DNA of 54,765 bases from a virus (taxonomy: Duplodnaviria > Caudoviricetes), in the IMG/VR virus record IMGVR_UViG_3300025769_000149, positions 1-54,765 of that record, one strand, 5' to 3'. Below are positions 7,581-53,687 of the stretch, one piece after another (position 1 is the stretch's first letter; the number at the start of each line of letters is the position of its first letter). Under the pieces are notes generated by a model. The model was given only the letters and a program-made list of their open reading frames with translations, was not told where the DNA came from and searched no databases. The position numbers and the translations under genes are program-made.

Positions 7581-7810
7581 TGGATTTTATTGATAGAAAC
7601 TGGGTGTTATTTGAAGCTAACGAGATTAGCTCTATAATGTATAATAAGATGCACGAAAACTCTGCGGATGATCTTATATATAACGCAGACAGATCTAAAG
7701 CGTTTGGATCATTTTCTACATGCTCTGGTTGTAAGACACCTACATTTTTATCAGGTAAAACTATATACAGTTTCGAGGAGTTTGCGAATACACTTAACAC
7801 ATCTTGGTAA
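7580..7810 (+). CDS. hypothetical protein
   Basis: 76 aa, TAATG-coupled at both ends. Confidence 0.65.
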   Translation: MDFIDRNWVLFEANEISSIMYNKMHENSADDLIYNADRSKAFGSFSTCSGCKTPTFLSGKTIYSFEEFANTLNTSW

Positions 7811-8202
7811 TGAACTTTTTAACTAATTTATTTTCCGCTGGAGCTACTGAACTGGTTAAAGGTGTAGGTGGTGTATTAGATAACCTCACTACTTCTAAAG
7901 AAGAAAAGCTTGAAGCAGAACAAAAGATAAAAGAATTAGTAGCCAACTACGAAGTTGAGATGGAAAAGAATATTACATCTCGATGGGAGGCGGATGCAAA
8001 ATCTGACTCATGGCTTTCAAAGAACGTAAGGCCTATGGTTCTTATATTCTTAATAGTATGCACGATGCTATTGATATTCATTGATGCTGGTGCAATCAAT
8101 TTTAACGTGAAGGATTCTTACGTGGACCTTCTTCAATTAGTATTAATAACAGTGATCGGTGCATACTTCGGTGGTAGATCACTAGAAAAAGTAAAAAAAT
8201 AA
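7810..8202 (+). CDS. holin of the GTA 3TM-holin type
   Basis: SDSWLSKNVRP followed by TM helices and GAYFGGRS; ATG at 7810 preferred (TAATG coupling). Confidence 0.75.
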   Translation: MNFLTNLFSAGATELVKGVGGVLDNLTTSKEEKLEAEQKIKELVANYEVEMEKNITSRWEADAKSDSWLSKNVRPMVLIFLIVCTMLLIFIDAGAINFNVKDSYVDLLQLVLITVIGAYFGGRSLEKVKK

Positions 8203-38000: not shown

Positions 38001-41000
38001 TAGAGAAATTAAACTAGTTACAGAAAGGCTAAACAAAATAGGTACGGAAATACAGGCTCTACACGATCAGTATAGCAAGTATCTTGATATTCAAGATCAG
38101 ACAGACTTTGTCATGATTGATACGCCTATTGAAGAAGTAATTCTCGGTCACGTAATTAATGATTCAACTGAACATAGACAGTATTACAAAACTATAATAG
38201 GCGCAGAAAACGAGCTGGATATGAGAAATCCAGAGCACAGAGACTTAGCTAGAAACGCTACTGGAAAACTGGCTGCCAAGTTTAGCCCTGAGTTTAATGA
38301 AAGGTTTTTAGTACCAGGTTTATCAGCTGCTACAAATCCTAAGCGAGGGTATTTCGTAGACGGTGTAGATGATACTAGGCTTTTAGTTGGTTCTAAAAAA
38401 GGTGAGACTGGTAAATACTCTAAGCCACCTTCAGGCTATATGAAGGGAAAGCTTGATAACGATGGCGTAAACAAAATAAAAAACAATAAAGCCGTAGTTA
38501 AAGCCCAGCAAGAAAACAATCAAGCGTTTAGACAGGTTGTTGAGGAGTTGAGGAATATGGTAGCCAATGGTGAAATAACTTTAGGTCAAGCAACAGCTAT
38601 ACTTCAGGTTATGAACGCAAACCAAAAAGGTTTAACTAGAGCTTCTGCTATATTAGACTTTGTTCCTTCAAAAAAGTTTAAAGGTCCAGCTACACTTGAG
38701 CATATGACACCAGCGCTGCAAGTAAACTTACAAGCGTTAAGATATATAGCAACTGGTGACGTTGATCAGAAAACAATGTTTGATCAAACTATGGATAACT
38801 ATAGGTTAGCTTATCTACCTGAAAAGTATGACAAGATTGTAAACTTATTCTACAAGTCAACCGTTCCTTACTGGCAGACGCCAGACATGTCTCCACTTGG
38901 TAGATACTACGGACCACAACTTCTTGCTGCTGGTTTTGATTTAGAGCTAGACATGATGTCAACTGGCGTTACGGTCGGTGGCGATGCTGGTATAGATATT
39001 AAAAACTGGAGAAAAGCTAACACTGGTAGAAAGAAAGCGCTAGGTAATTTAGCTGCTAACACTGATATAGCTACTGATCAAAAAACAGTTAATGACGCTA
39101 GACAAGCCGTTAAGTTTTCTAGATCTGGTAAAGTAAAAGGTATGACCGCGTGGGATTTTGACGACACGTTGGCTACTACGAAGTCTAATGTTATATTTAA
39201 TAAGGATGGTGAAACAAAAATAGTAAGCGCTGAAGACTTTGCAAAAGAAGGCGCTGGCTTAGTGGCTGACGGTTGGATACCGGACTTCTCTGAGTTTAAC
39301 AAGGTGACAGGTGGTAAACCTGGACCTATGTTTGATAAAGCTATGAGGCGTGCTAAAAAGTATGGTACAGAAGATACATACATACTTACCGCGAGAGCGC
39401 CTGAGGCTGCGCCTGCTATTAAACAGTTCTTAGACGCGCTAGGTTTAAATATACCACTTAAAAATATTACAGGATTAGGTAACTCTACTGGCGAGGCAAA
39501 AGCTAGATGGCTGTTAGATAAACACGCACAGGGATATAACGACATCGCGTTTGTTGATGACGCTATGCAAAACATTGATGCCGTAAACAAAGTGTTTAAT
39601 CAGTTTGATATTAAAGGTAAAGTTGAATTAGCTAAAACTAAGTTTAGTAGATCTGCGCCAACTGAGTTTAGTAAAATATTAAGTGAAGGCGAAAAAGATT
39701 TAAACGACGACTTTAATATTGTACTAGAAGAGTCTAAAGACGTAGGTAAAGAAAAAACTTTTTCTACTGCTAAAGCTAAACAACGCGGTAAAGGCAAAGG
39801 TAAGTTTAAATTTTTCTTGCCTCCATCTGCAGAAGACTTTAAGGGTTTAATATATCCTTTCTTAGGTAAAGGTAAGGTTGGTGAGCAGCACCATAAGTGG
39901 TTCAAAGAAAATTTATTTGACCCTTATTCTAAGGGTATGAAAAGAGTTAACGCTATTAAGCAAGAGGTTTCTTCGGATGTTAGAGCTTTAAAGCGTAATA
40001 ACAAAGATGTTACCAAAAAACTAAAGAAAAAAGTACCTGGCACAGACTTTACGTACGAGCAAGCTATAAGAGTGTACAACTGGAACAAAGCTGGTTTAGA
40101 CGTACCGGGTTTATCTAACGCTGATCTTAAAGCTTTAAACAAAGCTGTAAATGATAACCCTACTATAAAGCTTTTTGCAGAAGGTTTAGCGCAAATACAG
40201 AGCAAACCAGGCGCGGACGTCGATGTCAAGGAAGACTGGTTAGCGGGTACAATCACGTCTGACATGGTTGAGCTTATAGATCAGTCGAGAGACATGTTAC
40301 TTCAAGAGTTTAACGACAACGCTGATGTTGTGTTTAGTGAGCAGAACTTAAATAAAATAGAAGCTGTGTTTGGTTCGCGACATAGAGAGGCTATAGAAGA
40401 TATACTGTACCGCATGAAGACTGGTAGTACTAGAAACTTTGGCTCTAACAGAATACTCAATGACTTTATGAATTGGGTTAACGGTTCTGTTGGTACTACA
40501 ATGTTCTTTAACGCTAGATCAGCTGTGTTGCAGATGATCTCTAACGTCAACTTTATAAACTGGCACGATAACAACCCGCTAAAAGCCGCTAAAGCCTTTG
40601 CCAACCAAAAGCAATATTGGGGTGACGTAGCTATGATATTTAATTCACCTACGTTAAAACAAAGACGTGGTGGTATCGGCACTGACTTAAACGCGGCTGA
40701 GCTTCTTAAAGACTTAGAAAAGTCTGACAATAAGATGAAGGTAGTTACAAGCCATTTACTTCAGCTTGGTTTTACACCAACGCAGATAGCGGATAGTTTG
40801 GCTATTGCTACAGGTGGTGCTACAATGTACAGGAATAGAATCCAAACGTATTTGGATGAAGGTATGAGTCAGAACGAGGCTGAGTCTAAAGCTTTTGAAG
40901 ATATGATGGACATAGCTGAAGAAACTCAGCAGTCTACTAGACCAGATAAAATATCTCAACAACAAGCCTCTCCACTTGGTAAGTTAATACTTGCTTTCCA

Positions 41001-42033
41001 AAATACACCAATGCAATACAACAGAATCATGAAGCGCGCTGCGCAAGACATGGTTAATGGTAGAGGTGATCCAAAAGAACATATTTCAAAAATTATCTAC
41101 TACGGTGCTGTACAAAGCATGATATTCTATGGTCTTCAAACAGCGCTATTTAGTGTTATGTTTGGTGATGACGAGGAAGAAGACGATTTAGATACTAAAA
41201 AGGAAAGAGTAGTTAACGGTATGTTAGATAGCATACTGCGTGGAGCAGGTATTGCAGGCGCTGTAGTATCTACAATAAAGAACACTATACTAGAGCATCT
41301 TGATCAAAAGGCAAAAGAAGACGATGATATATACTTTACAGAGTATAATGAAGCTGACGTACTTATAGAAGCCCTTAATCTCTCGCCACCAATAGGTATT
41401 AAAGCTAGAAAGTTAGTTAGTGGTATGCGTACTTGGGAGTACAATCAGGACGTAATAGATCACATGTCTAAAACTGATATCGACAATCCTATTTACGACG
41501 CTTCATTCTCTGTAACAGAGGCTGTAACTAACATACCCTTAAGTAGACTTCACAGCAAATTTGAGAATCTTAGAGAAGCTATGGACTCTGATAACGAAAC
41601 CTGGAAACGTGTTGCCATGTTCTTAGGTTGGAACAAGTGGAGTTTTGGTATTAAAAACCAAGATGTGGTAGATGCCAAGGGTGAAATTAAAGCAATCAAA
41701 GACGTAGAGAAGGAAGAAAGAAGAGAGCAGAAGAAAGTAGAAAGAGAAATAGAAAAAGCTGCTGAAGAAGAAGCTGAGATAGAAGATAACATGCTTGATC
41801 AGGACGAGCAGAGAGAAGAGGGTGCTGAAGAAGTTCAGTGCGCGGCTGTTAGTGGATCTGGCAAACGTTGCTCTAACATGGCTTTACCTGGTAAAAACTT
41901 TTGCACTATACACGAGCAGGTTGAACAACGTGAAGACGGTAAAGAAGTTCAGTGCTCACATATAAAATCAAACGGCGAGCGCTGTAAAATGAAAACAAAA
42001 AATAACTCAGGAAAATGTTACTACCACGATTAA
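32089..42033 (+). CDS. giant multidomain internal virion (polyvalent-type) protein
   Basis: 3314 aa; Gly/Ala membrane-like segments, HEGTH zincin, sigma-region-2-like segment, HAD domain (DFDDTL, LTAR, FVDD), two C-terminal Cys3His Zn fingers. Confidence 0.8.
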   Translation: MNPELERLVQEKIDAAKAANEGVLSEEAKADIMKFVQQYKEDEQIKKDQDSQPGPGGESTTSGQPDASQSTTEVSTDDSSLEQEDEDQVVVDGDSEEEVIIEDQNQEEEVVVEEQQDPPKIISDRGDGWEYKRENGIYYTKKAGASSWTKTSGDVANTIAKEMFPEYGEFVDKVDADYVEGDGADQPGIFEGIEDKFTQDLKTNIKREYEGESNYSSSTVAGDFKGTAAFPNLQASHSNDNRYYVEHAAVFRPDGGYLTISDDDETGIDRTVDNVTEWYNTGDNSQIASNPIWSLFERKDNGNADPAFGGSEAIFGMAKNKAGEEYGYQFNDVEGMNEALSVSGYTIEPIYPVQYMSKNIHGEYMLDQWSTNNRYNQQKGRHGVVIRGYRVLKDGEVVLGEAPEGFEGYNPNPLGEDEANEIGGTMNNNYAGVSSAEVQNYFWNLAKDFHEENGFGYDDEGNPTVNFLQKSREYMVGREAEVLSGIDAELSDFEDKYIITRDDPSTLDIDETEYSDTATRLAFKNNDILTKDVVGVILEGSDLPQEEVDLISNYFNEPIYYTTKTEKNIKGRTFVETKETLASDWQKQRLDNVLESDMYKSLSPEGQEVVRNSLTAGSEMIDIMVGAAVDEQVARRKSILLEREIANSPDANIVRGVIDEKTAPHNIQAKINAFSARQSTIENHLKQKSDTLATTINGALADVAEAGYGYHSEGNVEDGTFRLIVDMPEDGSEEDRKVFQKRIDDLYGQYETINSDYMNGLRGEMLSYLEFVNETQDNAATLATVSKEFDERDVQWKDWMDAWKGMWWGTTAFFGSEEGMAGLQRIDDRGEVYRTMLTGSEAWAIGQKGEYASRTFTQQLPNLLVAVGTGGVTSTGLKALGASANVIKYGSSATTGFGVFGTGSAGQKKKQIYDMRTAGEEAQKQLTNLEAQYKNGDVSTAEYLVQKGQLEKTIALGDIDDTELYTAMASALVIEGGVTTFFGTAINSQKLLKAFGGEVDDVLRTATNTWYQNVGRGIFATAKETGSEVIEESLIFFGDQMAGSLILGQDADYSGALDVVMSSIISAGPTQGSGNVYNAFTSTMATSDTRAVYNDVMTNLDMITASMERAATPAEKAALKVDYLQEVGRLSNLQAGLELDVLVGGSKTLKTTLEANKALLKIHQEAGIKGSDSQATIDKKLKAYRATLSGGDLKSFDQRLSSAQNRISQTHAEVAQAYEDGNVVEDVYGEEGLKVQERLSKKPGWEQLSNREKAVAVHTEMQRKARNNRINSHRKDEKLMDYVELQVYGGKFSESGRKNRNRKAEDAIIDRYATDLQVRKGWTTMQAREGNVSLESILADPSVAGNFEVIQADSNEDLMAKLKQEFDNGNITEDEYNALRDDMQDMFKSSTKDGVEFGAIVGGKYITMADTQQVQDALDNGEMLQGTVALHEGTHAIDVLSGMNAEGQMENFAVNLQQGLAADENLRWVDQSARDRVNALNLEPGSQEYYDEYTKSVQDILGNKYYKSEFNAAKKAAGRTSLRNWYRMSTGKGFTIKTGKDALNFMVSNIEAFRNGEVSKLTKSRIEGTLDGETSKKRFSRSGQEASERVQALYEDQGVGAAMDIIDEFGARVNKLVNKYQDVPGFDRQLLTDEINTGRRGILDMILEYDQDANPGVPVAAYINKFLDRRAIEAANRILKTDFESDVTEARGIAAEETADVDIQTRTREGIRLGDRFGERGQSMHDSVVERVKNGDIDTDGKSYKTLGNALVDETQVMFGVSPKPGNLTKGDVANAQNFILKHADTLLAMLPEGTDSSGKSTGVNKVLLESLYTKGSRVSASKTGSKAGLAAQVKRGDITKQEFLEIFGITPAGTPNVSDRNTSARVKALIDQTGKAITNQAAKEALIQNGEEGAFAFEDGKSKVLYSKTLLDTSTKYPKIAQAVLNRLHRPEGLDIIKSLSGNVKGAFNSLFTEDDIKAMAMDQFGKAGNREIKLVTERLNKIGTEIQALHDQYSKYLDIQDQTDFVMIDTPIEEVILGHVINDSTEHRQYYKTIIGAENELDMRNPEHRDLARNATGKLAAKFSPEFNERFLVPGLSAATNPKRGYFVDGVDDTRLLVGSKKGETGKYSKPPSGYMKGKLDNDGVNKIKNNKAVVKAQQENNQAFRQVVEELRNMVANGEITLGQATAILQVMNANQKGLTRASAILDFVPSKKFKGPATLEHMTPALQVNLQALRYIATGDVDQKTMFDQTMDNYRLAYLPEKYDKIVNLFYKSTVPYWQTPDMSPLGRYYGPQLLAAGFDLELDMMSTGVTVGGDAGIDIKNWRKANTGRKKALGNLAANTDIATDQKTVNDARQAVKFSRSGKVKGMTAWDFDDTLATTKSNVIFNKDGETKIVSAEDFAKEGAGLVADGWIPDFSEFNKVTGGKPGPMFDKAMRRAKKYGTEDTYILTARAPEAAPAIKQFLDALGLNIPLKNITGLGNSTGEAKARWLLDKHAQGYNDIAFVDDAMQNIDAVNKVFNQFDIKGKVELAKTKFSRSAPTEFSKILSEGEKDLNDDFNIVLEESKDVGKEKTFSTAKAKQRGKGKGKFKFFLPPSAEDFKGLIYPFLGKGKVGEQHHKWFKENLFDPYSKGMKRVNAIKQEVSSDVRALKRNNKDVTKKLKKKVPGTDFTYEQAIRVYNWNKAGLDVPGLSNADLKALNKAVNDNPTIKLFAEGLAQIQSKPGADVDVKEDWLAGTITSDMVELIDQSRDMLLQEFNDNADVVFSEQNLNKIEAVFGSRHREAIEDILYRMKTGSTRNFGSNRILNDFMNWVNGSVGTTMFFNARSAVLQMISNVNFINWHDNNPLKAAKAFANQKQYWGDVAMIFNSPTLKQRRGGIGTDLNAAELLKDLEKSDNKMKVVTSHLLQLGFTPTQIADSLAIATGGATMYRNRIQTYLDEGMSQNEAESKAFEDMMDIAEETQQSTRPDKISQQQASPLGKLILAFQNTPMQYNRIMKRAAQDMVNGRGDPKEHISKIIYYGAVQSMIFYGLQTALFSVMFGDDEEEDDLDTKKERVVNGMLDSILRGAGIAGAVVSTIKNTILEHLDQKAKEDDDIYFTEYNEADVLIEALNLSPPIGIKARKLVSGMRTWEYNQDVIDHMSKTDIDNPIYDASFSVTEAVTNIPLSRLHSKFENLREAMDSDNETWKRVAMFLGWNKWSFGIKNQDVVDAKGEIKAIKDVEKEERREQKKVEREIEKAAEEEAEIEDNMLDQDEQREEGAEEVQCAAVSGSGKRCSNMALPGKNFCTIHEQVEQREDGKEVQCSHIKSNGERCKMKTKNNSGKCYYHD

Positions 42034-43058
42034 GTTTATTATTAACCTTACTATTTAGCTGTACACTACTACAAGCTCAAGAACTAAAGAAAGCATTTAA
42101 GTTTTCTACGTTCTACGCAGCTGTTAACGGAGGTAACTCCGTGTCGGATCAGACTATATACTCTGTTACTGATGGATTAACTCAAGAGACTATAGCGACT
42201 CCATTTGACTACAGTTTGTCTATGGGTGTACGTAAAATCGCTAGGTTTGGATACGAGAATAGAGCTAACGCTTTCTACGATGGAACAGAAACATCTTACT
42301 CTGCTGATGCTAATATAGGTAAGCGCAACGGTATAGAGTTTCTTGGAGAGGTTACATACGAAAGACAGCAAGGCCGGGAGTTCTTCAACCAGCACCACTT
42401 TTTTCGTTACATTGGAGATAAAGTTATGGCAAAAGTTGAATACCTTGAAGACGGGTTTGCAGACATCGAGTACTTCGAGGCCTCTCAAAGATATAGACTT
42501 AAGCTCGGTAAGAAGTTTTCTATCCACGCAGGAGTTGCTCAACGTATCTCAGAGCCCTATGGATATGATCCACTCGCTGAATGGAAACTTGCAAACGGAG
42601 ATATTCACTACACTTACCTCGCGCTTCAAGAAGGATATACTCACAACCTTACAACTGGAGAATATATGGCTCCAGACGGAACAGTTGTCGCTTCAAACAC
42701 TGAGGTCTGGGAAGCAGTCACTATCCCTGAAGTCTTATCTGAATACTCTGCTAGAAAAAGAAATGAACTTGCTCGCCAGTGGAATTACTCGGTGGTTGCC
42801 GGGTTCGACTTCTATCACTTTACAGAGGACTTCTGGTTCCACACTTGGGGAAATGTTATGCCCTACCATTACGACACAGGTGGGGAATATATGTATCACA
42901 ACACAGTGGACGGCCAGTGGCTTGACTACTCGGGCGGACTTATTTTCGGACACAGATTCAACAAACACATTGGAGTTTTTCTTGAAGGTAGATATAACAA
43001 ATACTGGAATAGGGAATGGTATAACTTTAAGTGTGGTGCAAACTATGTAATCTTTTAA
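42015..43058 (+). CDS. putative outer-membrane beta-barrel protein
   Basis: Sec signal (LLLTLLFSCTLLQA), aromatic-rich alternating strands, C-terminal ANYVIF with terminal Phe (BAM signal). Confidence 0.7.
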   Translation: MLLPRLSLLLTLLFSCTLLQAQELKKAFKFSTFYAAVNGGNSVSDQTIYSVTDGLTQETIATPFDYSLSMGVRKIARFGYENRANAFYDGTETSYSADANIGKRNGIEFLGEVTYERQQGREFFNQHHFFRYIGDKVMAKVEYLEDGFADIEYFEASQRYRLKLGKKFSIHAGVAQRISEPYGYDPLAEWKLANGDIHYTYLALQEGYTHNLTTGEYMAPDGTVVASNTEVWEAVTIPEVLSEYSARKRNELARQWNYSVVAGFDFYHFTEDFWFHTWGNVMPYHYDTGGEYMYHNTVDGQWLDYSGGLIFGHRFNKHIGVFLEGRYNKYWNREWYNFKCGANYVIF

Positions 43059-43061
43059 GAT

Positions 43062-43346
43062 ATGGCTACTGATCAATATAATAAAGGTCCGCTAAGAATA
43101 ACAGAAGAGGCCTATGAAAGACGCAATAAAAAAATGCGCAAAGATAACCCTGGTATGGGTAAGAGACTTACCAAAGGTAAAAACAAACGAAGAATAAGCT
43201 TTGCTTGTAGATTTGGTGCACAGAACCACCCTATGAAGAATAAGAAAGGAGAGCCTACGGCTTATGCTAAAGCTTTAAAAAAGTGGGGTTTTAGTAGCGC
43301 TGCTGAAGCTAGAAAATTTTGTAACGCAAATAAAGAAAAGAAATAA
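43062..43346 (+). CDS. small basic hypothetical phage protein
   Basis: RRISFACRF...KALKKWG; highly Lys/Arg-rich. Confidence 0.7.
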   Translation: MATDQYNKGPLRITEEAYERRNKKMRKDNPGMGKRLTKGKNKRRISFACRFGAQNHPMKNKKGEPTAYAKALKKWGFSSAAEARKFCNANKEKK

Positions 43347-43516
43347 TGGCATTTAAAATGAAATCACCGCTTGCAAAAAAGAAATGCGGTCCTTATAGAA
43401 AGAAAAACGCTCAAGGCAAAGAACAAGGCGTGGACGGTATGGCTTGTTGGGAAGGCTATAGATATGCTGGAACAGAAGACGGTTCAGATAAGTGTGTACC
43501 AATAGGAAGAAAATAA
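43346..43516 (+). CDS. MAFK-leader family protein 7 (56 aa, absent from the ORF track)
   Basis: MAFKMKSPLAKKKCGPYRKKNAQGKEQGVDGMACWEGYRYAGTEDGSDKCVPIGRK; TAATG-coupled; fills the gap. Confidence 0.8.
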   Translation: MAFKMKSPLAKKKCGPYRKKNAQGKEQGVDGMACWEGYRYAGTEDGSDKCVPIGRK

Positions 43517-43517
43517 A

Positions 43518-43799
43518 ATGGCAAAGCAAATAGGTGAGGATACTAAAGTAACATTAGACCTCAAGACAATAGGTATGGCATCAGCAGGTTTGGCTGCTTT
43601 AATTGGTATGTACTTTACACTACAAGCTGATATAGCTTTAGCAAAGGAATTACCTGAACCGCTACCTGCAGAAGTTACTCGTATGGAGTTTGATATGAAA
43701 GATCAATTGATTCGTCAAACTATTATGACCACACAAGAAGACGTGACTGAGATTAAGGACGACATGAAACGTATCGAAGAGAAAATAGATAACCTGTAA
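43518..43799 (+). CDS. single-TM membrane protein with C-terminal coiled coil
   Basis: TM IGMASAGLAALIGMYFTL, then heptads VTEIKDDMKRIEEKIDNL. Confidence 0.75.
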   Translation: MAKQIGEDTKVTLDLKTIGMASAGLAALIGMYFTLQADIALAKELPEPLPAEVTRMEFDMKDQLIRQTIMTTQEDVTEIKDDMKRIEEKIDNL

Positions 43800-43803
43800 T
43801 GAT

Positions 43804-44175
43804 ATGGAAACAGATACAATGAACTTTGGAACAGTGATTGCATACATATTCTTAATGTTATGTATGTTCGCAGCTGGTACAGCGCTTGGGCAGAACATGT
43901 GTAATAGTGATATTTGTGTTGTGCAGTTTAACGCTAGTTGGAACGAGAGCAATAGTGTAGATTATCTTGATGAACTCACTGATTGCAACGTTATGAACGT
44001 CAACATAGATGAAGGTACTTATCAATCTGATTACAAGATAGTTGTAGTGCCTACGATTATAGTATTTAACGGAGAAGAGGTTGAGAGGTTTCAAGCTAAT
44101 ATTATGATGCAAATGGATGCTACTAGGAAAGACGTGCAGAGTGTTGTCGATGAAATAATCTATAGCGATTTTTAA
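43804..44175 (+). CDS. exported thioredoxin-fold protein lacking CxxC
   Basis: signal peptide; VVQFNASWN in place of FxAxWCxxC; cis-Pro loop VVPTIIVFNGEEVERF. Confidence 0.7.
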   Translation: METDTMNFGTVIAYIFLMLCMFAAGTALGQNMCNSDICVVQFNASWNESNSVDYLDELTDCNVMNVNIDEGTYQSDYKIVVVPTIIVFNGEEVERFQANIMMQMDATRKDVQSVVDEIIYSDF

Positions 44176-44588
44176 TGGAGAAGTATATATACAAAGCTAA
44201 ACTAGAAAGAGTCGTTGACGGTGATACTATTGACGCTCTAATAGATTTAGGGTTTGATACGTGGGTGAAGAAGAGGATTAGATACAAAGGTATTGATACA
44301 TGGGAGTCGCGAACGAAAGATTTAGACGAAAAAAAATTAGGTCTCGCCGCAAAGGATCGCAACAAAGAGCTTTTGGAGTCAGTAAGTTCCAAACCAGGTT
44401 GCTTCAGATTAAGAAGTCACGGCGTAGGAAAGTACGGTAGAGTACTTGGTGAGATCTTTGTTAAAGATATAGAAGGAATAGAATATAATGTTAACCAAAC
44501 ATTGATAGACGAAGGCCATGCGTATGTTTACGATGGTGGTAAAAAGAAAATGTTTGTCAATAAAGAAAGTAAAAAGAACGTATTATGA
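44175..44588 (+). CDS. thermonuclease (SNase-family) nuclease
   Basis: RVVDGDTID, IRYKGIDTWE, GKYGRVLG, LIDEGHA. Confidence 0.88.
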   Translation: MEKYIYKAKLERVVDGDTIDALIDLGFDTWVKKRIRYKGIDTWESRTKDLDEKKLGLAAKDRNKELLESVSSKPGCFRLRSHGVGKYGRVLGEIFVKDIEGIEYNVNQTLIDEGHAYVYDGGKKKMFVNKESKKNVL

Positions 44589-44734
44589 TTGATTGGATTA
44601 ATGGCTTTGATGCCGGAAACAAAAAGGAAAAGTATTTTTTAGAATTTAGATTAGGAACCCTAACTCTATTAGAGATTAAGTGGGAAGCTAAGAAGTTTAG
44701 GTTTATGATATTCAACTTAGGATTTGAAGTATGA
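44585..44734 (+). CDS. small hypothetical protein (49 aa, absent from the ORF track)
   Basis: MIDWINGFDAGNKKEKYFLEFRLGTLTLLEIKWEAKKFRFMIFNLGFEV; ATGA overlaps at both ends. Confidence 0.65.
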   Translation: MIDWINGFDAGNKKEKYFLEFRLGTLTLLEIKWEAKKFRFMIFNLGFEV

Positions 44735-47028
44735 AAAAGCTAGGTTACTTATTTGTAATACTATTTTGGTTATTAGCTAGTTCAGTATTAGGACAAGGTA
44801 GTTGGCTGGACATTACTGTACAGACAGATAACTATGCGGCTGAAACATCATGGGAGATATTAAACGAAGACGAAGAAGTTGTTGCTGTTAATCCTCCATA
44901 CCAGGACAATAGCTTATTAACTATAACAAAGTTTTTACCTGCTGGTGATTACCAGTTTGTAATGATGGACTCTTTTGGTGATGGTATATGCTGTGGCTTT
45001 GGCGAAGGTTTTTATAGACTGCACAACGCTTGCGGTTTAGATACAGCTAACTATGAGTTTGCTACCGCCGTTGACACTATAGACTTTACACTTAACCCTT
45101 GCTTACCGCTAGTACCAGGTTGCACTAATGATCTAGCGAACAACTATAACCCATGGGCCACTGTTGAAGATGGCACGTGTAACGTAATCGAGTGTGACTC
45201 AGCTGAGACGCTGGTGTCTATGGAGTTAACGTTAGACACTTGGCCTAACGAAACTGGTTTTACATTAGTTGATTTAGCTGTTGGTCAGTTTTACGAACAG
45301 GTGTTTCCTGGTGAGTACAATTTCGGTGACCAGCTCGTTACGTATACATACGACTTTTGTGTATCACTAGGTTTTGAGTTGATACTAGTAGATACGTTTG
45401 GTGATGGACTAAATGGTTCAGCATCAGGTGGTGAAGACGGAGCGTGTGTTATTACAGCTTGTGATAGTGTTATATGGGAGCTAGAAGATTTAGCGTTTGA
45501 AGAGTTTGACGGTGGCACAATGTACTCTGGTGCTATATTTACTGAGCCGTGTCCACCTGCACCTGATGTGCCTGGTTGCATGGACGACGATTATGTAGAT
45601 TATAACCCATTAGCTACAGTGCAAGACACCTGCGAAACTTTACACGTATGGGGTTGCACAAACCCTGAGGCATTTAACTACGATAGCTTAGCTACTATAT
45701 CAGATAACAATAGCCCTTGTGCTATTAACGTTACTATTGAAGACGATGGCGGTGATGGTTGGGGTAACTCAAAGCTAGGTATGATACAAGGTGATCAACA
45801 GTGGTTGTTTACTATGGGCCCTGGTTCGTTTGAGCAGTCATGGACTATCGACTTAGACTCTGACGCAGAGGTAAAGCTTTATTACTTTCAACAAGGTAAT
45901 GCTCAGCAATCAGCTCAAGAGTTAGCGTTCCAGACTCTACATAACTCTGTATTGATTACTAACGAAGCTGGTGATACATTATTATCTGAGGGTACAAACC
46001 CTTTCTTTGATAACGGACAGGGTGCGTTACAACCGTTTGACGAACCTAACTGGACTACATATAGCTTTGTACCTTACTGTGGTGATAGCTGTGAGCCTTT
46101 TAGCTACGGATGTACAGATATGATGGCGCAGAATTACAATGCTGATGTAAACACGGAGGATGGTAGCTGCTACTATCAAGCTGGTTGTACTCAAGCAGGT
46201 TACTTAGAATATTATACACAAGGATATGAAGCTGACTTTGATAACGGTAGTTGTAATACTCTCGCGGTATTTGGCTGCATGGATAGCGAGGCTTTTAACT
46301 ACAACCCAGAGGCAAATGTAGATAACGAAGGTTGTATACCTGTAGTACTAGGCTGCACGAACCCACTTGCCTTTAACTATAACTCGGCTGCTAATACCGA
46401 TGATGATAGCTGTATACCCTTCATCTACGGTTGCACAGACGCAATGATGTTTAACTATGATCCAGAAGCTAACGCTGAAGATGGTAGCTGTATTCCTTAC
46501 ATTTATGGTTGTACTGATGTGTACGCCTTTAATTATGATCCGTTGGCTAATACTGACAATGGCTCGTGCGAGGAAGTGGTGGTCGACTGTATGGACCCGC
46601 TAGCCTACAACTACAACGAACTTGCAAACGAACCTGCAGACAATTGTTTATACGACGCTGGTTGTGTAACAGGACCTGGTGAACCTTACTGGTTAAACGA
46701 TATGTGTTATGCTTGGGTTATTCAAGCGGATCCATTCTGCTGTGATGAAGCGTGGGATGCTACGTGTCAAGATACATATAACTACTGTTCATCTACAGGT
46801 ATAGAATCCATATTAGCTGGTGAAGACTTAGTTGTCTACCCAAACCCAGTTGGTAACGTGTTAAACATAAATCAAAAAGTTGACATAGACGTGATCGATT
46901 CAAACGGACGTATCATAGTATCTAAAACAAATACGAACGCGATAGACGCGTCCCTATGGCCTCCAGGAATGTATATGGTACGCATTGTTTGGAACGGTCG
47001 CGTTGTTGTCAAGAAGATTATCAAATGA
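44731..47028 (+). CDS. T9SS (Por secretion) cargo protein with Cys-rich repeats and a type A C-terminal sorting domain
   Basis: signal peptide; about 10 GC[TM]xxxAxNYxxxAxxDxGSC-type repeats; CTD VYPNPV...IDSNGR...PGMYMVRI...KKIIK. Confidence 0.88.
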   Translation: MKKLGYLFVILFWLLASSVLGQGSWLDITVQTDNYAAETSWEILNEDEEVVAVNPPYQDNSLLTITKFLPAGDYQFVMMDSFGDGICCGFGEGFYRLHNACGLDTANYEFATAVDTIDFTLNPCLPLVPGCTNDLANNYNPWATVEDGTCNVIECDSAETLVSMELTLDTWPNETGFTLVDLAVGQFYEQVFPGEYNFGDQLVTYTYDFCVSLGFELILVDTFGDGLNGSASGGEDGACVITACDSVIWELEDLAFEEFDGGTMYSGAIFTEPCPPAPDVPGCMDDDYVDYNPLATVQDTCETLHVWGCTNPEAFNYDSLATISDNNSPCAINVTIEDDGGDGWGNSKLGMIQGDQQWLFTMGPGSFEQSWTIDLDSDAEVKLYYFQQGNAQQSAQELAFQTLHNSVLITNEAGDTLLSEGTNPFFDNGQGALQPFDEPNWTTYSFVPYCGDSCEPFSYGCTDMMAQNYNADVNTEDGSCYYQAGCTQAGYLEYYTQGYEADFDNGSCNTLAVFGCMDSEAFNYNPEANVDNEGCIPVVLGCTNPLAFNYNSAANTDDDSCIPFIYGCTDAMMFNYDPEANAEDGSCIPYIYGCTDVYAFNYDPLANTDNGSCEEVVVDCMDPLAYNYNELANEPADNCLYDAGCVTGPGEPYWLNDMCYAWVIQADPFCCDEAWDATCQDTYNYCSSTGIESILAGEDLVVYPNPVGNVLNINQKVDIDVIDSNGRIIVSKTNTNAIDASLWPPGMYMVRIVWNGRVVVKKIIK

Positions 47029-47939
47029 TTAAGTGGATAGGTCAACATATATTTGACTTCATAGCTAGGTTTCGTAGTGATGTATATATTGAAAGTGACA
47101 TATATATTGAAAGTAATCTTAGAATAGATAACGCAACTATAGGCAGCGTACAAACATCTTTAGAATCATTTGCAGATAACGACACTAGCTTAATGACGTC
47201 AGCTGCTATTGACGATCGTATTAATGCTGCTGGTGGTGGCGTAAGCGTATCTGATAGCACCGCTAATACAGACTTTCCCGTAGTGTTTCACGACGAGTCA
47301 AACAATCTACACGATGACACAGCTGCGTTTACATATAATCCTAGTACTGGTAACGCAGTTATCCCTAAGATACAGACAGCTGGAAACATAGAACTAGGTC
47401 ACGCGTCAGATACTACTATAGCTAGATCTGCGGCTGGTAGAGTTACTATTGAAGGAGAAGAAATAGTTACTACTAGAACACCAGGTTTAACCAGTGCCGC
47501 AGCTGGTATACCATGCGCGATAATGCAGGTTAGAAGAACTATAACACAGGCTGAAGCTAACTCTATGCATTCAACACCTATTGAAATAGTTCCAGCTCAA
47601 GGAGCCAATACTGTCATTATACCTTTAGGAGGTATGGTAAGGATAGATAGAGCTACTACTCAAAGTAATAGTGCTACTGACTGGAACATGCACTACGCTG
47701 ATCAGGAACCAGGTGCTTACCTTACCACGTCAATTCATCACATAAGAAGATTTATGTACAACGAAGCTGGTGATAGAATATATCACATAACACCTGGTCT
47801 TGCGTCCACAGAAGTAGCTCAAAATTTAACTGACGACGTTAACAAAGCTGTAGAGGTTAGCTTTGATTCAGCGGCAACAACAAATGCTTTTACAAGCGTG
47901 GATGTGTATTTAACTTATTACGTAATATCAATAGCATAA
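47025..47939 (+). CDS. tail-fibre-like virion protein
   Basis: true start ATG 47025 (MIKWIGQHIFDF, ATGA overlap); DNDTSLMTSAAIDD, FTYNPSTG, LGHASDTTIARS fibre-type motifs. Confidence 0.65.
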   Translation: MIKWIGQHIFDFIARFRSDVYIESDIYIESNLRIDNATIGSVQTSLESFADNDTSLMTSAAIDDRINAAGGGVSVSDSTANTDFPVVFHDESNNLHDDTAAFTYNPSTGNAVIPKIQTAGNIELGHASDTTIARSAAGRVTIEGEEIVTTRTPGLTSAAAGIPCAIMQVRRTITQAEANSMHSTPIEIVPAQGANTVIIPLGGMVRIDRATTQSNSATDWNMHYADQEPGAYLTTSIHHIRRFMYNEAGDRIYHITPGLASTEVAQNLTDDVNKAVEVSFDSAATTNAFTSVDVYLTYYVISIA

Positions 47940-48556
47940 TGGCACTATCATCAGCAAAACACGAAAGTTTTTATGTGACTTCAGGAGGAGGAGCAGACGA
48001 AGTATCTGCAAAAAACTTAACTAACGCAACGAATGGTTGGGCTGCAGAAAAAGCCGAGGGATGCACTAAATATATAAGTGATCCTATATTAGGTCCGTTA
48101 ATATATCAGCTTCAGCAAATGCAAGATGAGATTGATTATCTTAGAACAGAGATTAGTGCTAATAAAGATAAGACTGGTATAACTACAAGTCAAGCAAACG
48201 CTATTACAGCCAACACAGCTAAGACTTCTTTTCCAGGTTTAGGCACGTCTAGCACAACAGCATTAGCGGGTGATACTACAACTATATCAGGAGCTCAAGC
48301 TAGCGCTATCACGGCTAACACAGCTAAGACAAGCATGACTTTAGGAACTAGCGGATCTACGGCTTTAGCGGGTGATACTAAAATAGTTGGTTATGTAGGT
48401 AGTAGTGATACGAATATAACTATAGGTAACATGGCTTCTGCTACGGCGAAAGGGCAAACTACTTATACACTGCCTATAACAGTAACACAAAGTGGTACAG
48501 ATAAACTCGGAAACCCTACGACACTAACTAAAACAGCGACACTAACACTAACGTAA
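47939..48556 (+). CDS. fibre-like virion protein with internal duplication
   Basis: coiled coil plus two copies of QAxAITANTAKTS..LGTSxxTALAGDT. Confidence 0.65.
   Translation: MALSSAKHESFYVTSGGGADEVSAKNLTNATNGWAAEKAEGCTKYISDPILGPLIYQLQQMQDEIDYLRTEISANKDKTGITTSQANAITANTAKTSFPGLGTSSTTALAGDTTTISGAQASAITANTAKTSMTLGTSGSTALAGDTKIVGYVGSSDTNITIGNMASATAKGQTTYTLPITVTQSGTDKLGNPTTLTKTATLTLT
48191..48380 (+). repeat. imperfect ~85-nt coding direct repeat
   Basis: 48191-48278 vs 48296-48380 share aacacagctaagac and ttagcgggtgatacta. Confidence 0.8.
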
Positions 48557-48557
48557 A

Positions 48558-48881
48558 ATGGCATTAACAAATCCGTATACAGGTATTTATGATATAGACA
48601 GCGTCTCAAGCGGTGTCACAATGATTAATAAGTTTTCAAATAAAGGTAACTTAAACTCCATTAGTATATGTAATCAACACGCGTCAACTACCGCTGTTGT
48701 TACGTTGTATCTTGACGATGGTCTTGGCAACGATAATTCTGATGTCCACATAATTAACGCTGTGTCGATACCAGCTGGAACAACATTGGTGCTTGACGGT
48801 AACGTTAACTTTAACAACGACACGTACGATTTAAAAATAACTAATACAGGTGGTGTACCGCTTTCTATAATAACAAGGTAA
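48558..48881 (+). CDS. small beta-rich virion protein
   Basis: SISICNQH...VSIPAGTTLVLD. Confidence 0.65.
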   Translation: MALTNPYTGIYDIDSVSSGVTMINKFSNKGNLNSISICNQHASTTAVVTLYLDDGLGNDNSDVHIINAVSIPAGTTLVLDGNVNFNNDTYDLKITNTGGVPLSIITR

Positions 48882-49342
48882 TGGAAAACATAAGTAAACA
48901 CATAAGCTATAAAGAAGCTACTCGTAGCAACACGGCTCTGCGTAGGGGTATAGAAAATATACCAGACGTAGAAGAGTTAGAGAACATGAAAGTTATAGCT
49001 GAAAAAGTATTTGAACCGCTAAGGAAATGGGTTGGAGGTCCGATTAAAATAAATAGTTTCTATAGATCGCCTGAGTTAAACGTGGCGATTGGAGGTAGTA
49101 AAAAATCCCAGCACTGCCACGGTCAAGCAATGGATATCGATGATACATATGGGCATAGAAGTAACGCTTCAATGTTTCACCACGTAAGATACAACATGGA
49201 TTATGATCAGATTATTTGGGAATTTGGTGATGATAAAAACCCAGCGTGGATTCATATAAGCTATGTATCAGAAGAAGAAAATAGACACAGGTGTCTTAAA
49301 GCTGTAAAGAAAAACGGTAAGACACATTACGAATTAATGTAA
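48881..49342 (+). CDS. endolysin, peptidase M15 family
   Basis: INSFYRS..LN..IGG...SQHCHGQAMDID...WIHISY Zn-ligand pattern. Confidence 0.85.
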   Translation: MENISKHISYKEATRSNTALRRGIENIPDVEELENMKVIAEKVFEPLRKWVGGPIKINSFYRSPELNVAIGGSKKSQHCHGQAMDIDDTYGHRSNASMFHHVRYNMDYDQIIWEFGDDKNPAWIHISYVSEEENRHRCLKAVKKNGKTHYELM

Positions 49343-49349
49343 AGAAATA

Positions 49350-49796
49350 ATGGCAGATTTAAAAGTAACAATTACCGAAGATATATCCTTAAACAATAAG
49401 TCTAGAGGATCGACAAACAGTTTAACTATTACAGGGATTAACCACACTGTGGATAGAATAGTAACATGCCCAGCGAGTCAAACAACTACTATAGCCACGT
49501 TCAACGCTAATGTGTACGGCGCGGCTAACGCTGTTGACTTAGAGGATACAAAGTATATTCGAATCACTAACTTAGATAGTTCTAACGCTATTGAGTTAGC
49601 TGTGGTTGGAGCCGCTACGTTGTATCAAGTCAGTGTAGCCGCTGGTCACTCACATATATTAGGACCTCCAGATGATTGTATGTTAGCAGAGGCAGATACA
49701 TCACCTTCGTTTGGAACTATGGCTGACTTAGCGAGCATACAGGTTAACCCGGGAAGCAACGCTGTTAAAGTTGAAATGTTTATAGCAGGCGCGTAA
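49350..49796 (+). CDS. small beta-rich virion protein
   Basis: KYIRITNLDSSN; last gene of the + strand arm. Confidence 0.65.
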   Translation: MADLKVTITEDISLNNKSRGSTNSLTITGINHTVDRIVTCPASQTTTIATFNANVYGAANAVDLEDTKYIRITNLDSSNAIELAVVGAATLYQVSVAAGHSHILGPPDDCMLAEADTSPSFGTMADLASIQVNPGSNAVKVEMFIAGA

Positions 49797-49809
49797 GTAC
49801 TGCTACAAT

Positions 49810-49843
49810 AAAAAAAAGGGGAGCCTTTCGGTTCCCCTTTTTT
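49810..49843. terminator. bidirectional intrinsic terminator between the convergent arms
   Basis: A8-GGGGAGCC-tttc-GGTTCCCC-T6. Confidence 0.9.
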
Positions 49844-49860
49844 GTATCCGGTGGTTTAGG

Positions 49861-51726
49861 TTATGTAACCTCACACGATCCACCTGAGCAAGCTAGCTCA
49901 CCAGAAAGATCTGTATTATCCTCGGTCTCCATTACATTTGATAAGTCAACAGTATCTAGTGACTTAACCATTTCATTAAATTTAGTTTTAGTAATGTCCT
50001 CAAATGGAGCTTGAGTATATGTACCACCGTTGTATGGTAGAACAGATAAACCGTTATAGTATTCTCTGTTCTTCCACATCCACTCACCAGCCTCATCCCA
50101 CTCGTTAGCTTTTAAACTAATTGTGGCAGAAACATTGTGGGTGTTTGAACCAGCCCTATGACCAGGCGATACCCAGTCGGTTGATACTTTCTTTACTCTC
50201 TCAAGTAAATCAAACGCAGACTCAGTTCTTACAATACAACCATCAGGTGCCGCTTGCGGTACACTGATCACAGCTGTATCATGAGGTCTGAAGTATTCGT
50301 CTTCAATCAACTCAGGGTGGTTCTTAACTAGATAAGAATAAATAGCTTCGTTCTTGCCAACTCGTAGTCTACGCACGTAGTGCTTGTTGTGCCAAGCGTG
50401 TATACCAGATGATGTACCTAGTACTAGCGATGTGGTGCCTGCTGGTTTAACACACGTTGTACGCGCTGCCTTGTTGATACCAATAAGCTTAGCAACTCTA
50501 GTGTTTTCACGCTTAACTATATCAGCAGCTTTTTTCATATCAAGATTCATAACCTTGTTAGAGCCGATGCCTGTCATTGATACACCAATCAAAGCGTCTT
50601 TCTCAGTTGTATCTTTCCACACCTCACGTAGATAGTGGAAGTCTGTGTAACCTGCTTGTAGCGTACCTATGAAGGCAGCAACTTTAACTCTGGCATTTAA
50701 ATCATCTTGATCAACTATATCTGATACGTTAACCTCACATAGGTTACAGAACTGATAAGGACGAAGAGCAATCTCGCAACACGGGTTTGTTCCCCAGTCC
50801 TTATCATTGTTTAGATATATACCAGGCTCGCCAGCTCCTGATGCTTCAACTCTTTTCCACAGATCCATAAAGAAGTTCTTCTTAACTTTATGTCTCATCA
50901 ACACAGCGGAGTTATTAGCTCTACCACGTTGCGGGTTAAGTTCCCACCAGTTACCTGACTTACATGATATCATTTCTTCATCTGTAGCACTAAATAAAGA
51001 TATAAGTGCTGCACGCCTAATACCACCAGCAAGCACAGCGTCTGCAATATGGCAAATAATGTCATGAACTTCGAGGCTAGTGAGTTGCGTTCCATCTTCT
51101 TTGTTATCTAATATACCTTGAACTTTAACTAAGCATTCTTTGAGTGGCTGTGGGCCAGGAGCTTTACCTCCTGACGTCACTAGCCTTGCGCCTTTAGGTC
51201 TAATGTCTGAGTAATCAAATTTTACTTTAGAACATCTGCGACCACCAAGGTACGATTCAATAAGCACTTTAACGGCATCTGCCCAACCTTCAATGCTATC
51301 ACCAATTACAAAACGCCTGTGTCGCTTTTCAAACGGTTTAATGATGTGTGGTAGTCTTCCAACGTGGTGCTGCTGCACTGAATAACCCACCCCACAGCCT
51401 GAAAGAAGTAAGAACATAGTCTCGCTAAAGCTATCAATGTGGTCAATAGGTAGGTAACTACAGTTATACAACCTGTTCGGAGATATTTCAATGGGCTTGC
51501 CACTAAACTGGAGTGAACGCATTGACGGTAAAACTTTTTTATCATATACATATTTATAAGCTTCGTTTATTTGATCTACTAGTTCAGGATATTTCTTAAC
51601 GTGCATCTCTAAGTTACGCGTAACTAACTCCTCCCATGTCTCTCTTCTGTTAAGCTCAGGTATATACTTCGCATACTTCATATGCACTGTAATATCTGAT
51701 AAAATATCTCTGCTAATCTGACTCAT
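49861..51726 (-). CDS. nrdJ: class II (adenosylcobalamin-dependent) ribonucleotide reductase
   Basis: LPSMRSLQF, TNPCCEI, KPAGTTS, C-terminal ACSGGSCEV; no beta subunit adjacent. Confidence 0.92.
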   Translation of the reverse strand: MSQISRDILSDITVHMKYAKYIPELNRRETWEELVTRNLEMHVKKYPELVDQINEAYKYVYDKKVLPSMRSLQFSGKPIEISPNRLYNCSYLPIDHIDSFSETMFLLLSGCGVGYSVQQHHVGRLPHIIKPFEKRHRRFVIGDSIEGWADAVKVLIESYLGGRRCSKVKFDYSDIRPKGARLVTSGGKAPGPQPLKECLVKVQGILDNKEDGTQLTSLEVHDIICHIADAVLAGGIRRAALISLFSATDEEMISCKSGNWWELNPQRGRANNSAVLMRHKVKKNFFMDLWKRVEASGAGEPGIYLNNDKDWGTNPCCEIALRPYQFCNLCEVNVSDIVDQDDLNARVKVAAFIGTLQAGYTDFHYLREVWKDTTEKDALIGVSMTGIGSNKVMNLDMKKAADIVKRENTRVAKLIGINKAARTTCVKPAGTTSLVLGTSSGIHAWHNKHYVRRLRVGKNEAIYSYLVKNHPELIEDEYFRPHDTAVISVPQAAPDGCIVRTESAFDLLERVKKVSTDWVSPGHRAGSNTHNVSATISLKANEWDEAGEWMWKNREYYNGLSVLPYNGGTYTQAPFEDITKTKFNEMVKSLDTVDLSNVMETEDNTDLSGELACSGGSCEVT

Positions 51727-53391: not shown

Positions 53392-53687
53392 TTTGCTTTA
53401 CTAATAGATATAACATCTACCGACTTCATGTTGACACTACAAACCTTATTGTTTTTTGTAGGAAACGTGTGGTGCATATGGCTACCGTCCTTAAAAAAAA
53501 CCGTAACGTCTCTAGTTTTTTCTACACCGTCAAGAAAGTGTAAGCAAACAGCATTATTACCCTCTGGTTTTACAAAGGTTTTTTCATCCGCTAGTGTTAT
53601 ACTGACGTGAGTAGTATCCTGCGCTAAACAACAGCTCACTGTAATCCAGAATAAAACAACGAATATGTATGTTAGTTTATTTTTCAT
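53388..53687 (-). CDS. exported hypothetical protein
   Basis: MKNK followed by hydrophobic signal LTYIFVVLFWITVSCCLA-Q. Confidence 0.65.
   Translation of the reverse strand: MKNKLTYIFVVLFWITVSCCLAQDTTHVSITLADEKTFVKPEGNNAVCLHFLDGVEKTRDVTVFFKDGSHMHHTFPTKNNKVCSVNMKSVDVISISKAK

Follow-up and report, generated by a model that had tools for sequence, protein, structure and literature searches.

The stretch of DNA analysed here, called the window in what follows, corresponds to an entire virus record in IMG/VR, 54,765 bases long (CheckV completeness 94%), and it represents, as a single record, an uncultured crAss-like tailed phage of the ocean. Four of its genes, which we designate A, D, E and G, encode a predicted outer-membrane beta-barrel, a small predicted inner-membrane protein, an exported thioredoxin fold without the redox cysteines, and an acidic, cysteine-rich protein that ends in a type IX secretion system (T9SS) sorting domain. 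Judging from the sequences, the structural models and the company these genes keep in other phages, it is highly probable that the four products work together as one exported envelope unit, which would draw on three host pathways: Sec, the beta-barrel assembly machinery (BAM) and the T9SS. Our best reading of their setting is that they would act late in infection. That the unit serves egress, acting beside holin and endolysin, is what we tentatively propose, giving it somewhat less than an even chance.

The original prediction for this region had listed five open reading frames (ORFs) in 42015..47028, and all five are indeed found there, on the plus strand (Table 1). The ORFs of this block are densely packed on that strand, the genes abutting or overlapping one another, and the start of A overlaps the final 19 nucleotides (nt) of a giant gene. 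A scan of 41800-49900 returned 19 promoter-like sites against 21.6 expected, in a search that excludes Bacteroidota promoters, and 6 terminator-like sites against 4.7 expected.

Table 1. Window positions of the predicted features discussed in the text.
Feature	Position	Strand	Basis or content
A, exported outer-membrane beta-barrel, 347 aa	42015..43058	+	signal-like N-terminus, barrel model, last residue Phe
B (DUF6321, 94 aa) and C (56 aa), small basic accessory genes	43062..43516	+	insert separating A from D
D, single-pass inner-membrane protein, 93 aa	43518..43799	+	one hydrophobic segment, conserved helical tail
E, exported thioredoxin fold, 123 aa	43804..44175	+	homologue profile vs PDB
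F, cytoplasmic SNase-family endonuclease, 137 aa	44175..44588	+	PF00565 34 bits (cut-off 21)
G, acidic Cys-repeat protein, 765 aa	44731..47028	+	Sec signal, beta-sandwiches, repeats, type A C-terminal domain
G, type A T9SS C-terminal domain	46834-47025 (residues 702-765)	+	TIGR04183, PF18962
K, M15 peptidase endolysin	48881..49342	+	Peptidase_M15_3 54 bits; phrog_894 E 1.2e-27
Holin-family homologue	7804..8202	+	GTA_holin_3TM 25.6 bits (cut-off 24.8)
GroEL and GroES-like co-chaperonin	2997-4568 and 9499-10089		GroEL: phrog_5725, E 7e-135

Predicted properties of the four proteins

Both ends of G look like export signals. The N-terminus reads MKK, then a hydrophobic run, then VLG/QG, and the C-terminal domain (CTD) is recognised as a type A T9SS sorting domain by both TIGR04183 (47.3 bits, cut-off 23) and PF18962 (44.9 bits, cut-off 27), with YPNP at residues 703-706 (nt 46837), just as the original prediction had it. 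The structural model of G has a predicted local distance difference test score (pLDDT) of 70.3 and a predicted template modelling score (pTM) of 0.29, the latter as low as expected for a protein built like beads on a string. In this model a signal helix is followed by beta-sandwiches at residues 23-121, 160-270 and 330-446 with Cys repeats between them, then by a helical Cys-rich module at 658-695 and a last sandwich at 702-764 modelled with a pLDDT of 85-88. In Foldseek, this last sandwich matched the NucA CTD seen in the translocon (8glk_D) with a target-normalised template modelling (TM) score of 0.73, a root-mean-square deviation of 2.7 Å and 29% identity, and the RgpB CTD (7pq4) with a TM score of 0.57. 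In the VIA fold search, the CTDs of RemA, NucA and FspA gave Z scores of 8.5-8.8 over 65-67 residues, RgpB gave 8.0 and mirolase 7.9. By sequence and model alike, G is thus predicted to have a signal peptide for Sec and a genuine T9SS CTD of type A.

The hydrophobic N-terminal region is kept in 60 of the 70 distinct homologues of G, as it is in 84 of 86 for A and 71 of 74 for E, the misses in each family (10 for G) being miscalled starts. Because this hydrophobicity persists while the sequences diverge, the N-termini of A, E and G are likely to be working signal peptides. When six G homologues were scanned for the CTD, three passed at E ≤ 0.01 and three failed, two of the latter having a shortened C-terminus. 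One clade of G homologues (loci L103, L104, L119, L126, L134 and L137) has, in place of the full CTD, a C-terminus of about 35 residues, ..ITDILGRP..KNK.LFFIYDDGTVEKKI; those of L104 and L126 fail PF18962, and the short version may be a minimal, or a different, sorting signal.

G contains 119 acidic against 14 basic residues, 37 Cys, and nine canonical repeats of 20 residues each with the pattern C-x-D..A.NY(N/D)..A..DGSC. The Cys-repeat architecture described in the original prediction therefore stands, with nine such repeats counted and not about ten. With the Cys-repeat half of the protein (residues 455-700) as query, 970 longer proteins were found at E ≤ 1e-3. Many of them lie on chromosome-sized contigs and combine the repeats with a T9SS CTD and with SprB repeats, MAM, FG-GAP, PKD or Fib_succ, and some are named as surface proteins of Flavobacteriales; a 3612-residue protein with SprB repeats and a CTD, encoded on a 1.2-Mb contig, is 51% identical to G over 205 repeat residues. 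As far as such similarities tell, G is assembled from modules common to the giant T9SS surface proteins of cells. The same Cys repeat is also present in giant proteins that are assigned to marine algae, haptophytes among them (P0477, P0499, P0502 and P0511), and it seems to be a widespread marine extracellular module that has no Pfam model in the copy used.

A search with the whole model of G gave weak matches of the N-terminal sandwiches to a calcium-dependent carbohydrate-binding module (Z 6.5) and a C2/PLAT-like domain (Z 6.4), and the ferlin matches listed by Foldseek had TM scores below 0.1. The N-terminal 460 residues are matched by 1696 clusters, and the Atlas clusters nearest to G are 97-100% viral. 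At the position of G, other phages encode proteins that start with a MAM or a Laminin_G_3 domain. Of the four, G also varies most, with a mean pairwise identity of 0.49 in its body and 0.36 in its CTD; the corresponding values are 0.65 for A, 0.69 for D and 0.58 for E.

One may ask whether G is instead a virion protein, associated with the tail or the muzzle, in which case the CTD would be a mere Ig-like decoration and the signal peptides would go unused. G does lie between a 3314-residue virion-type giant protein and the fibre-like genes H-J, one protein (P0463) joins a crAss muzzle C-terminal domain with the Cys repeats, and T9SS sorting-domain proteins are placed near structural genes in gut crAss-like contigs in the accessible text of one report (PMC6949934). 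We nevertheless consider this very improbable. A signal peptide of the cleavable type persists in the homologues as described above, the CTD exceeds the curated cut-offs and matches CTDs bound to the translocon, and G has no match to a structural family in PHROGs. The Cys content points in the same direction: it is 4.8% (37/765) in G as against 18/2815 and 6/3314 in the giant virion-type proteins of this phage (0.2-0.6%), and such a high content would fit folding outside the cytoplasm.

A is predicted to reside in the outer membrane. The outer-membrane protein with a signal peptide and a final Phe that had been foreseen here is borne out by a signal-like N-terminus, a barrel model and a C-terminal NYVIF; 85 distinct homologues end in F (56), L (21), I (4), Y (1) or R (3). 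The AlphaFold2 model, made with 32 homologues, is of moderate confidence (pLDDT 72.7, pTM 0.67) and consists of about 12 long antiparallel strands, with a conserved 70-residue insertion (181-251) between strands 7 and 8. All matches to the PDB that Foldseek listed at E ≤ 1e-3 are membrane beta-barrels, among them NanC (E 4e-5, target-normalised TM score 0.55), Flavobacterium johnsoniae BamA, DcaP and porins. The VIA all-against-all fold search ranked OmpG (Z 10.6), Tsx (10.4) and KdgM (10.2) high, together with autotransporter barrels (9.4-10.4) and LpxR (10.0); PorV (6h3i_F), at 9.2, comes below several unrelated barrels. No Pfam or NCBIfam family, PorP/SprF and PorV included, matched A at E ≤ 0.1, no Pfam family matched 12 distant full-length relatives, and a profile of A found 0 matches among PDB sequences at E ≤ 10. 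On its model, A is thus predicted to be a generic outer-membrane barrel of 12-14 strands, without a specific family match.

The family of A falls into 3717 clusters when the identity threshold is 90% and into 411 when it is 50%; every one is metagenomic, and none has a Pfam family or an informative name. The BFVD viral structure library holds one close entry, the unnamed A0A516LKJ4 (TM score 0.65, 22% identity), and other phage “porins” in that library resemble A weakly. Lipoprotein- or lipobox-like N-termini (..SCAAPKKCCSQ) are seen in the A homologues of loci L104, L111, L101, L137, L055, L109, L121 and L106; the A of the window has a plain signal peptide and no lipobox-like N-terminus.

D fits the bitopic membrane protein of the original prediction. 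It has a single hydrophobic segment at about residues 17-35, preceded by three Lys and followed by a net acidic stretch, and a conserved helical tail; LQADIA.AKELP and RMEFDMKD are its conserved motifs. By the positive-inside rule this helical tail, about 58 residues long, is probably periplasmic. PHROGs gave D no named function, the only matches being two weak ones to families of unknown function. E, as a single sequence, stays below the cut-off of the Pfam thioredoxin model (15.5 bits, cut-off 23.5) and below the NCBIfam cut-offs. A profile of 27 homologues compared with the PDB, however, finds thioredoxin 2vim_A with an E value of 1.6e-9, and 208 distinct sequences at E ≤ 1. The active site reads W-N-E-S-N where a thioredoxin has W-C-G-P-C, and N47 and N50 are invariant among the 27 homologues, as is the cis-Pro pair P83-T84. 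The exported, CxxC-less thioredoxin fold that had been foreseen is in this way recovered; E is predicted to be a thioredoxin in fold and not a redox thioredoxin. E comes directly after D in 77 of the 77 loci with room for it. A further suggestion, that E might assist the Cys-rich cargo, finds no support in this arrangement, as E is fixed beside D and not beside G.

The host can be approached through the large terminase (TerL), a search with which found 87 cultured phage records. Their named hosts are all Flavobacteriia (Flavobacterium 68, Cellulophaga 15, Tenacibaculum 2, Maribacter 1); the top match is 63.7% identical and the remaining records are below 60%. Because the cultured relatives by TerL all infect Flavobacteriia, the host is very probably a flavobacterium, and the Flavobacteriia are a class that possesses the T9SS. 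Apart from TerL, the window encodes GroEL/GroES homologues, virion proteins that include a portal and capsid-type ones, two giant proteins (2815 and 3314 residues), an M15 endolysin, ribonucleotide reductase (RNR), thymidylate synthase and MazG. The crAss muzzle C-terminal domain on the 2815-residue protein barely reaches its Pfam cut-off (27.3 bits, cut-off 27). Among the early minus-strand genes, a 99-residue ORF (53388-53687) starts with a signal peptide, MKNKLTYIFVVLFWITVSCCLAQ, that closely resembles the one of G; neither Pfam nor PADLOC matches this ORF to a family, and it may encode a further exported phage protein.

Linkage of the genes

Loci for comparison were taken from two samples. 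One was chosen by similarity: A had 438 confirmed matches on viral contigs, the top 80 being retained, and G gave 57 loci. The other, independent sample was drawn with a back-translated motif of D, which had at least 119 matches, and consists of 80 loci with 2 kb on each side, not de-replicated; 48 of these have at least 1.8 kb on both sides, and these well-flanked loci were examined by local profile searches. When the window proteins were compared with the loci in six frames, A, D, E and G were found together wherever the flanks allow. The 59 de-duplicated four-gene loci have the order ADEG (30 loci), GADE (25) or DEGA (4) and no other, and all three orders are rotations of one cycle that keep D-E intact. 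All 48 well-flanked loci contain E; 43 contain G, 40 contain A, and 37 have the three together. The synteny across phages that the original prediction had named as a check extends over well over 100 independently assembled viral contigs from many metagenomes. The presence of G in 43 of 48 loci, together with the restriction to cyclic rotations, argues for one unit and would be unexpected for unlinked neighbours.

The four genes could also be divided into two independent neighbours, with A-D-E as a spanin-like disruptor of the outer membrane and G as an unrelated accessory cargo of the T9SS. The trio alone would supply inner-membrane, periplasmic and outer-membrane parts, and G varies much more than the trio. 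Locus L170 reads A-D-E-amidase-holin, though its contig ends 96 nt upstream of A, so that a G gene may have been present there. Two observations count against the single unit. In 5 of the 48 well-flanked loci there is D-E, with or without A, and no G within 2 kb (L153, for example, reads D-E-endolysin), and G may be separable for this reason; and the correlations of pairwise identity among the four genes, which lie between 0.28 and 0.59 and do not set the trio apart from G, are confounded by shared descent. On the other side, the identity of the G body tracks that of D and E (0.53 and 0.56) about as well as the identity of A does (0.28 and 0.53), and the counts and rotations given above have to be explained as well. 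On balance, we consider the division into two units unlikely and keep to the single unit of four.

It is hardly credible that the region came from a host by insertion or arose as a chimera of assembly, which the original prediction had itself brought up as a concern. The repeats and the CTD of G are of a cellular type, and the guanine-plus-cytosine content is slightly raised across G, to 0.43. The same genes, however, recur in the same cyclic order and with phage neighbours in the many independently assembled contigs just mentioned; the module stretch is present in runs of 13 studies, and contigs from four of the runs cover 30 of the 30 bins of 40000-50000. Nor are there cellular loci for A. 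In 185,579 species genomes, one per species, the A family occurs in 5 places, all of them phage-type contigs; they sit in metagenome-assembled genomes of mutually discordant taxa and carry a giant protein, RNR or both, plus D, E and G. No cultured carrier was found among 50,697 phage records, a set that may have lacked near-identical ones, either by blastn with the 5-kb region or by tblastn with G (E ≤ 1e-5) and A (E ≤ 1e-3). For the distant relatives of A, one locus was found for P0258 and none for P0291, P0359 and P0246.

The remaining genes of the block behave differently, and B, C and F are, going by their distribution, variable inserts outside the A/D/E/G set. All three are sporadic. B, which is recognised as DUF6321 (33 bits, cut-off 28.5), is missing from most related loci in the six-frame comparison, and a joined form running from 43061 to 43518, without B and C, is found in contigs of all four runs examined, from which it appears that B and C are an insertion polymorphism. 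DUF6321 genes recur elsewhere around the module in related phages. F matches phrog_452 (E 2.7e-37), has no signal peptide, and gave a weak match to SNc+LTD in PADLOC (E 6.8e-5). The staphylococcal nuclease (SNase) that had been counted as part of the module is thus what it was said to be, by its PF00565 score, and it does not belong to the set, being found in just 2 of the 48 well-flanked loci and in varying position. Elsewhere F stands after A, after E or before D (loci L131, L165, L186, L195 and L211), and it would seem to behave like a mobile or selfish insert. The 142 nt between F and G, the sole intergenic gap of the block, are filled by a putative 49-codon ORF (44586-44735) that overlaps the F stop and the G start. 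Beyond G, the genes H, I and J, which lie before the endolysin, look fibre-like and have no family match in Pfam or PHROGs; protein I (47939-48556) has an internal repeat, ..ANAITANTAKTS.., that is present twice.

Lysis neighbours and possible roles

Lysis genes lie near the module frequently, though not constantly. For the neighbours of D-E in the 80 loci drawn with the D motif, 47 representatives of 81 clusters (at least 90 residues) were compared with Pfam, and selected ones with PHROGs. Within 2 kb of D-E, an M15 endolysin was found in 10 of the 80 loci, an endolysin-type gene of phrog_3000/33083 in 10 and an Amidase_2 endolysin in 4, a holin-family gene of phrog_3427 in 12 and one of Phage_holin_4_1/phrog_199 in 8; taken together, 28 of the 80 have a recognised endolysin or holin at this distance. 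In all 10 loci with the M15 endolysin, the flank of 2 kb that contains it also contains a holin-family gene of phrog_3427. The order G-A-D-E-endolysin is seen in 6 of the 48 well-flanked loci. Of the 28 ADEG loci with 10-kb flanks, 17 have an M15 endolysin downstream; it stands immediately next to the module in 6 of them and no more than 3.5 kb away in 16. In the window, K starts 1.85 kb downstream of G, and in several relatives it directly follows the module. The holin-family homologue of the window is 42% identical (E 2e-27) to the phrog_3427 gene found near D-E; a 70-residue ORF with two hydrophobic segments (7368-7580) adjoins it. No spanin-like lipoprotein pair could be recognised in the window. 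D was also considered as a holin, and this was rejected, as a separate holin-family gene adjoins the module in other loci.

How the four proteins might act at the end of infection can be outlined as follows. Sec would export all of them and BAM would insert A into the outer membrane; D would stay fixed in the inner membrane and extend its conserved helix into the periplasm, where E would lie beside it, and the host T9SS would carry G, folded and disulfide-bonded, to the cell surface. There G may coat or mimic the surface, since it is built from the Cys repeats of host-type giant surface proteins. D, E and A together would span the envelope and help to breach the outer membrane or to release it, covering a step for which the window shows no recognisable spanin, while G, as a surface fibre on the dying cell, could spare the progeny from being lost to debris or to already infected cells. 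In its boldest form the proposal is of a new egress machine of Bacteroidota phages that replaces spanins, with an inner-membrane helix, a dead-thioredoxin adaptor and an outer-membrane barrel that docks a T9SS-delivered fibre; the outer membrane would be opened and the dying cell re-dressed with a mimic of a host adhesin that protects the progeny. We would give this full version only a small chance. The idea that G weakens the outer membrane by chelating divalent cations was rejected, as this would be implausible in seawater.

A number of observations speak against a role in egress. No lysis gene is recognised within 2 kb in 52 of the 80 loci. An M15 endolysin follows in only 3 of 22 GADE loci with 10-kb flanks, and many GADE loci continue into small unknown genes and then a capsid-type structural gene. 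The endolysin of the window lies about 41 kb from the holin homologue and is separated from G by the three unrelated genes H-J. The tail of D, at about 58 residues, is short for bridging the periplasm, there is no lipoprotein partner, and beta-barrels are not known to mediate membrane fusion of the spanin type.

Alternatively, the four proteins might remodel the cell surface and have no role in lysis at all, their purpose being superinfection exclusion, receptor masking or adhesion; G would then be displayed through the T9SS and anchored by A, and D-E would assist in folding or assembly. The architecture of G is adhesin-like, its beta-sandwiches being weakly similar to a calcium-dependent carbohydrate-binding module. 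Proteins at its position elsewhere have MAM or Laminin_G_3 domains, and its repeats are common to host-type surface proteins; its variability is what one would expect of a protein that faces a variable partner. The cargoes of the T9SS can have dedicated barrels, as in the pairs PorU-PorV, PorZ-PorQ and SprB-SprF. In a similar manner, the CTD protein is encoded here beside a small outer-membrane barrel; where the order is GADE, the gene for the barrel comes immediately after that for the cargo, and in several loci the stop of one overlaps the start of the other. Unlike those barrels, A has no sequence match to PorV, PorQ, PorP or SprF, its fold match to PorV (6H3I) is unspecific and no better than those to unrelated barrels of 12-14 strands, and the module is phage-encoded and accompanied by D and E. 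The high conservation of D and the fixed D-E pair would be left unexplained by remodelling, and the genes are located in the late structural and lysis block, not among the early genes. A comparison of A, D, E and G with the defence and exclusion models of PADLOC returned 0 families at E ≤ 0.01. Of the surface remodelling through Sec, BAM and the T9SS that the original prediction had envisaged, the export signals, the barrel and the CTD therefore hold, and remodelling or superinfection exclusion is one possible purpose. We hold remodelling without a lysis role to be possible and yet on the unlikely side, and tentatively favour egress.

Known systems and what the module may mean

Phage proteins of the host outer membrane are familiar from other systems. 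Llp of T5 and Cor of lambdoid phages are receptor-masking lipoproteins, and Lom of lambda is a phage outer-membrane protein; Llp protects the progeny from debris and excludes superinfection. The module resembles them in that a phage protein would be placed in the outer membrane of the host. Llp, Cor and Lom are, however, single small proteins, without a secretion-system cargo and without a periplasmic or inner-membrane partner.

Phage-borne T9SS cargo has only a thin precedent in print, namely two passing mentions, and for the whole set none was found. In the accessible text of their report, Bellas et al. (2020, PMC7468147) describe three genes of Cryophage, variable among variants of the phage, that carry a type A sorting domain, call this a unique occurrence, and propose a hijack of the host T9SS, possibly for superinfection exclusion. 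As in the window, a phage of a Bacteroidota-type host encodes type A cargo. The Cryophage cargoes are enzymes or a PA14 protein (endoglucanase, GH39) encoded in the variable islands of a freshwater and ice phage, as far as that text describes them (PMC7468147), whereas the cargo described here is a non-enzymatic Cys-repeat protein whose gene belongs to a conserved set of four, abundant in the ocean. The accessible text on Cryophage mentions no barrel, inner-membrane protein or dead thioredoxin linked to the cargoes.

The second mention, by de Jonge et al. (2019, PMC6949934), is of sorting-domain proteins beside crAss-BACON genes in gut crAss-like contigs. These contigs have in common with the window that they belong to crAss-like phages of Bacteroidota and have sorting-domain ORFs near structural genes. 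They differ in that the accessible text gives no partner genes and proposes no function, and in that their repeats are BACON and not C-x-D..NYN..DGSC. In the literature covered, which leaves aside supplements and most subscription journals, no description was found of a set made up of a barrel, a membrane-helix protein, a dead thioredoxin and a cargo.

With respect to disrupting the outer membrane, the module may be compared with two-component spanins such as Rz/Rz1 of lambda (Kongari et al., 2018, PMC6139136; see also a preprint on the phiKT disruptin, 10.1101/515445). Their inner-membrane protein is helical in its periplasmic part, carries a membrane segment at the N-terminus and has a partner in the outer membrane. 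The module may have a similar broad layout; it often lies near holin and endolysin genes of a phage with a diderm host, and shares the window with no other recognisable disruptor of the outer membrane. The outer-membrane part of the module is a barrel of 347 residues and not a small lipoprotein, and no outer-membrane spanin with a lipobox is present in the module. The thioredoxin-fold E is a fixed third member, and the predicted periplasmic part of D is only about 58 residues long. Furthermore, no sequence similarity to spanins was found, and the order relative to the lysis genes is not constant.

The module is very common in ocean viral DNA, and it has gone unannotated, with no cultured carrier found. 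Its parts are aimed at three pathways of the host, Sec, BAM and the T9SS, in a group of phages, the marine flavobacterial and crAss-like phages of Bacteroidota, in which passage through the outer membrane and the use of the T9SS are poorly understood. If the lytic role is true, the module would constitute a third route of outer-membrane disruption beside spanins and disruptins. If instead it dresses the surface, it would amount to a widespread, phage-directed change of the flavobacterial surface, which would be relevant to particle attachment and to the dynamics of marine phages and their hosts. Under either reading, what emerges is a concrete set of four genes that can be tested in Flavobacterium johnsoniae.

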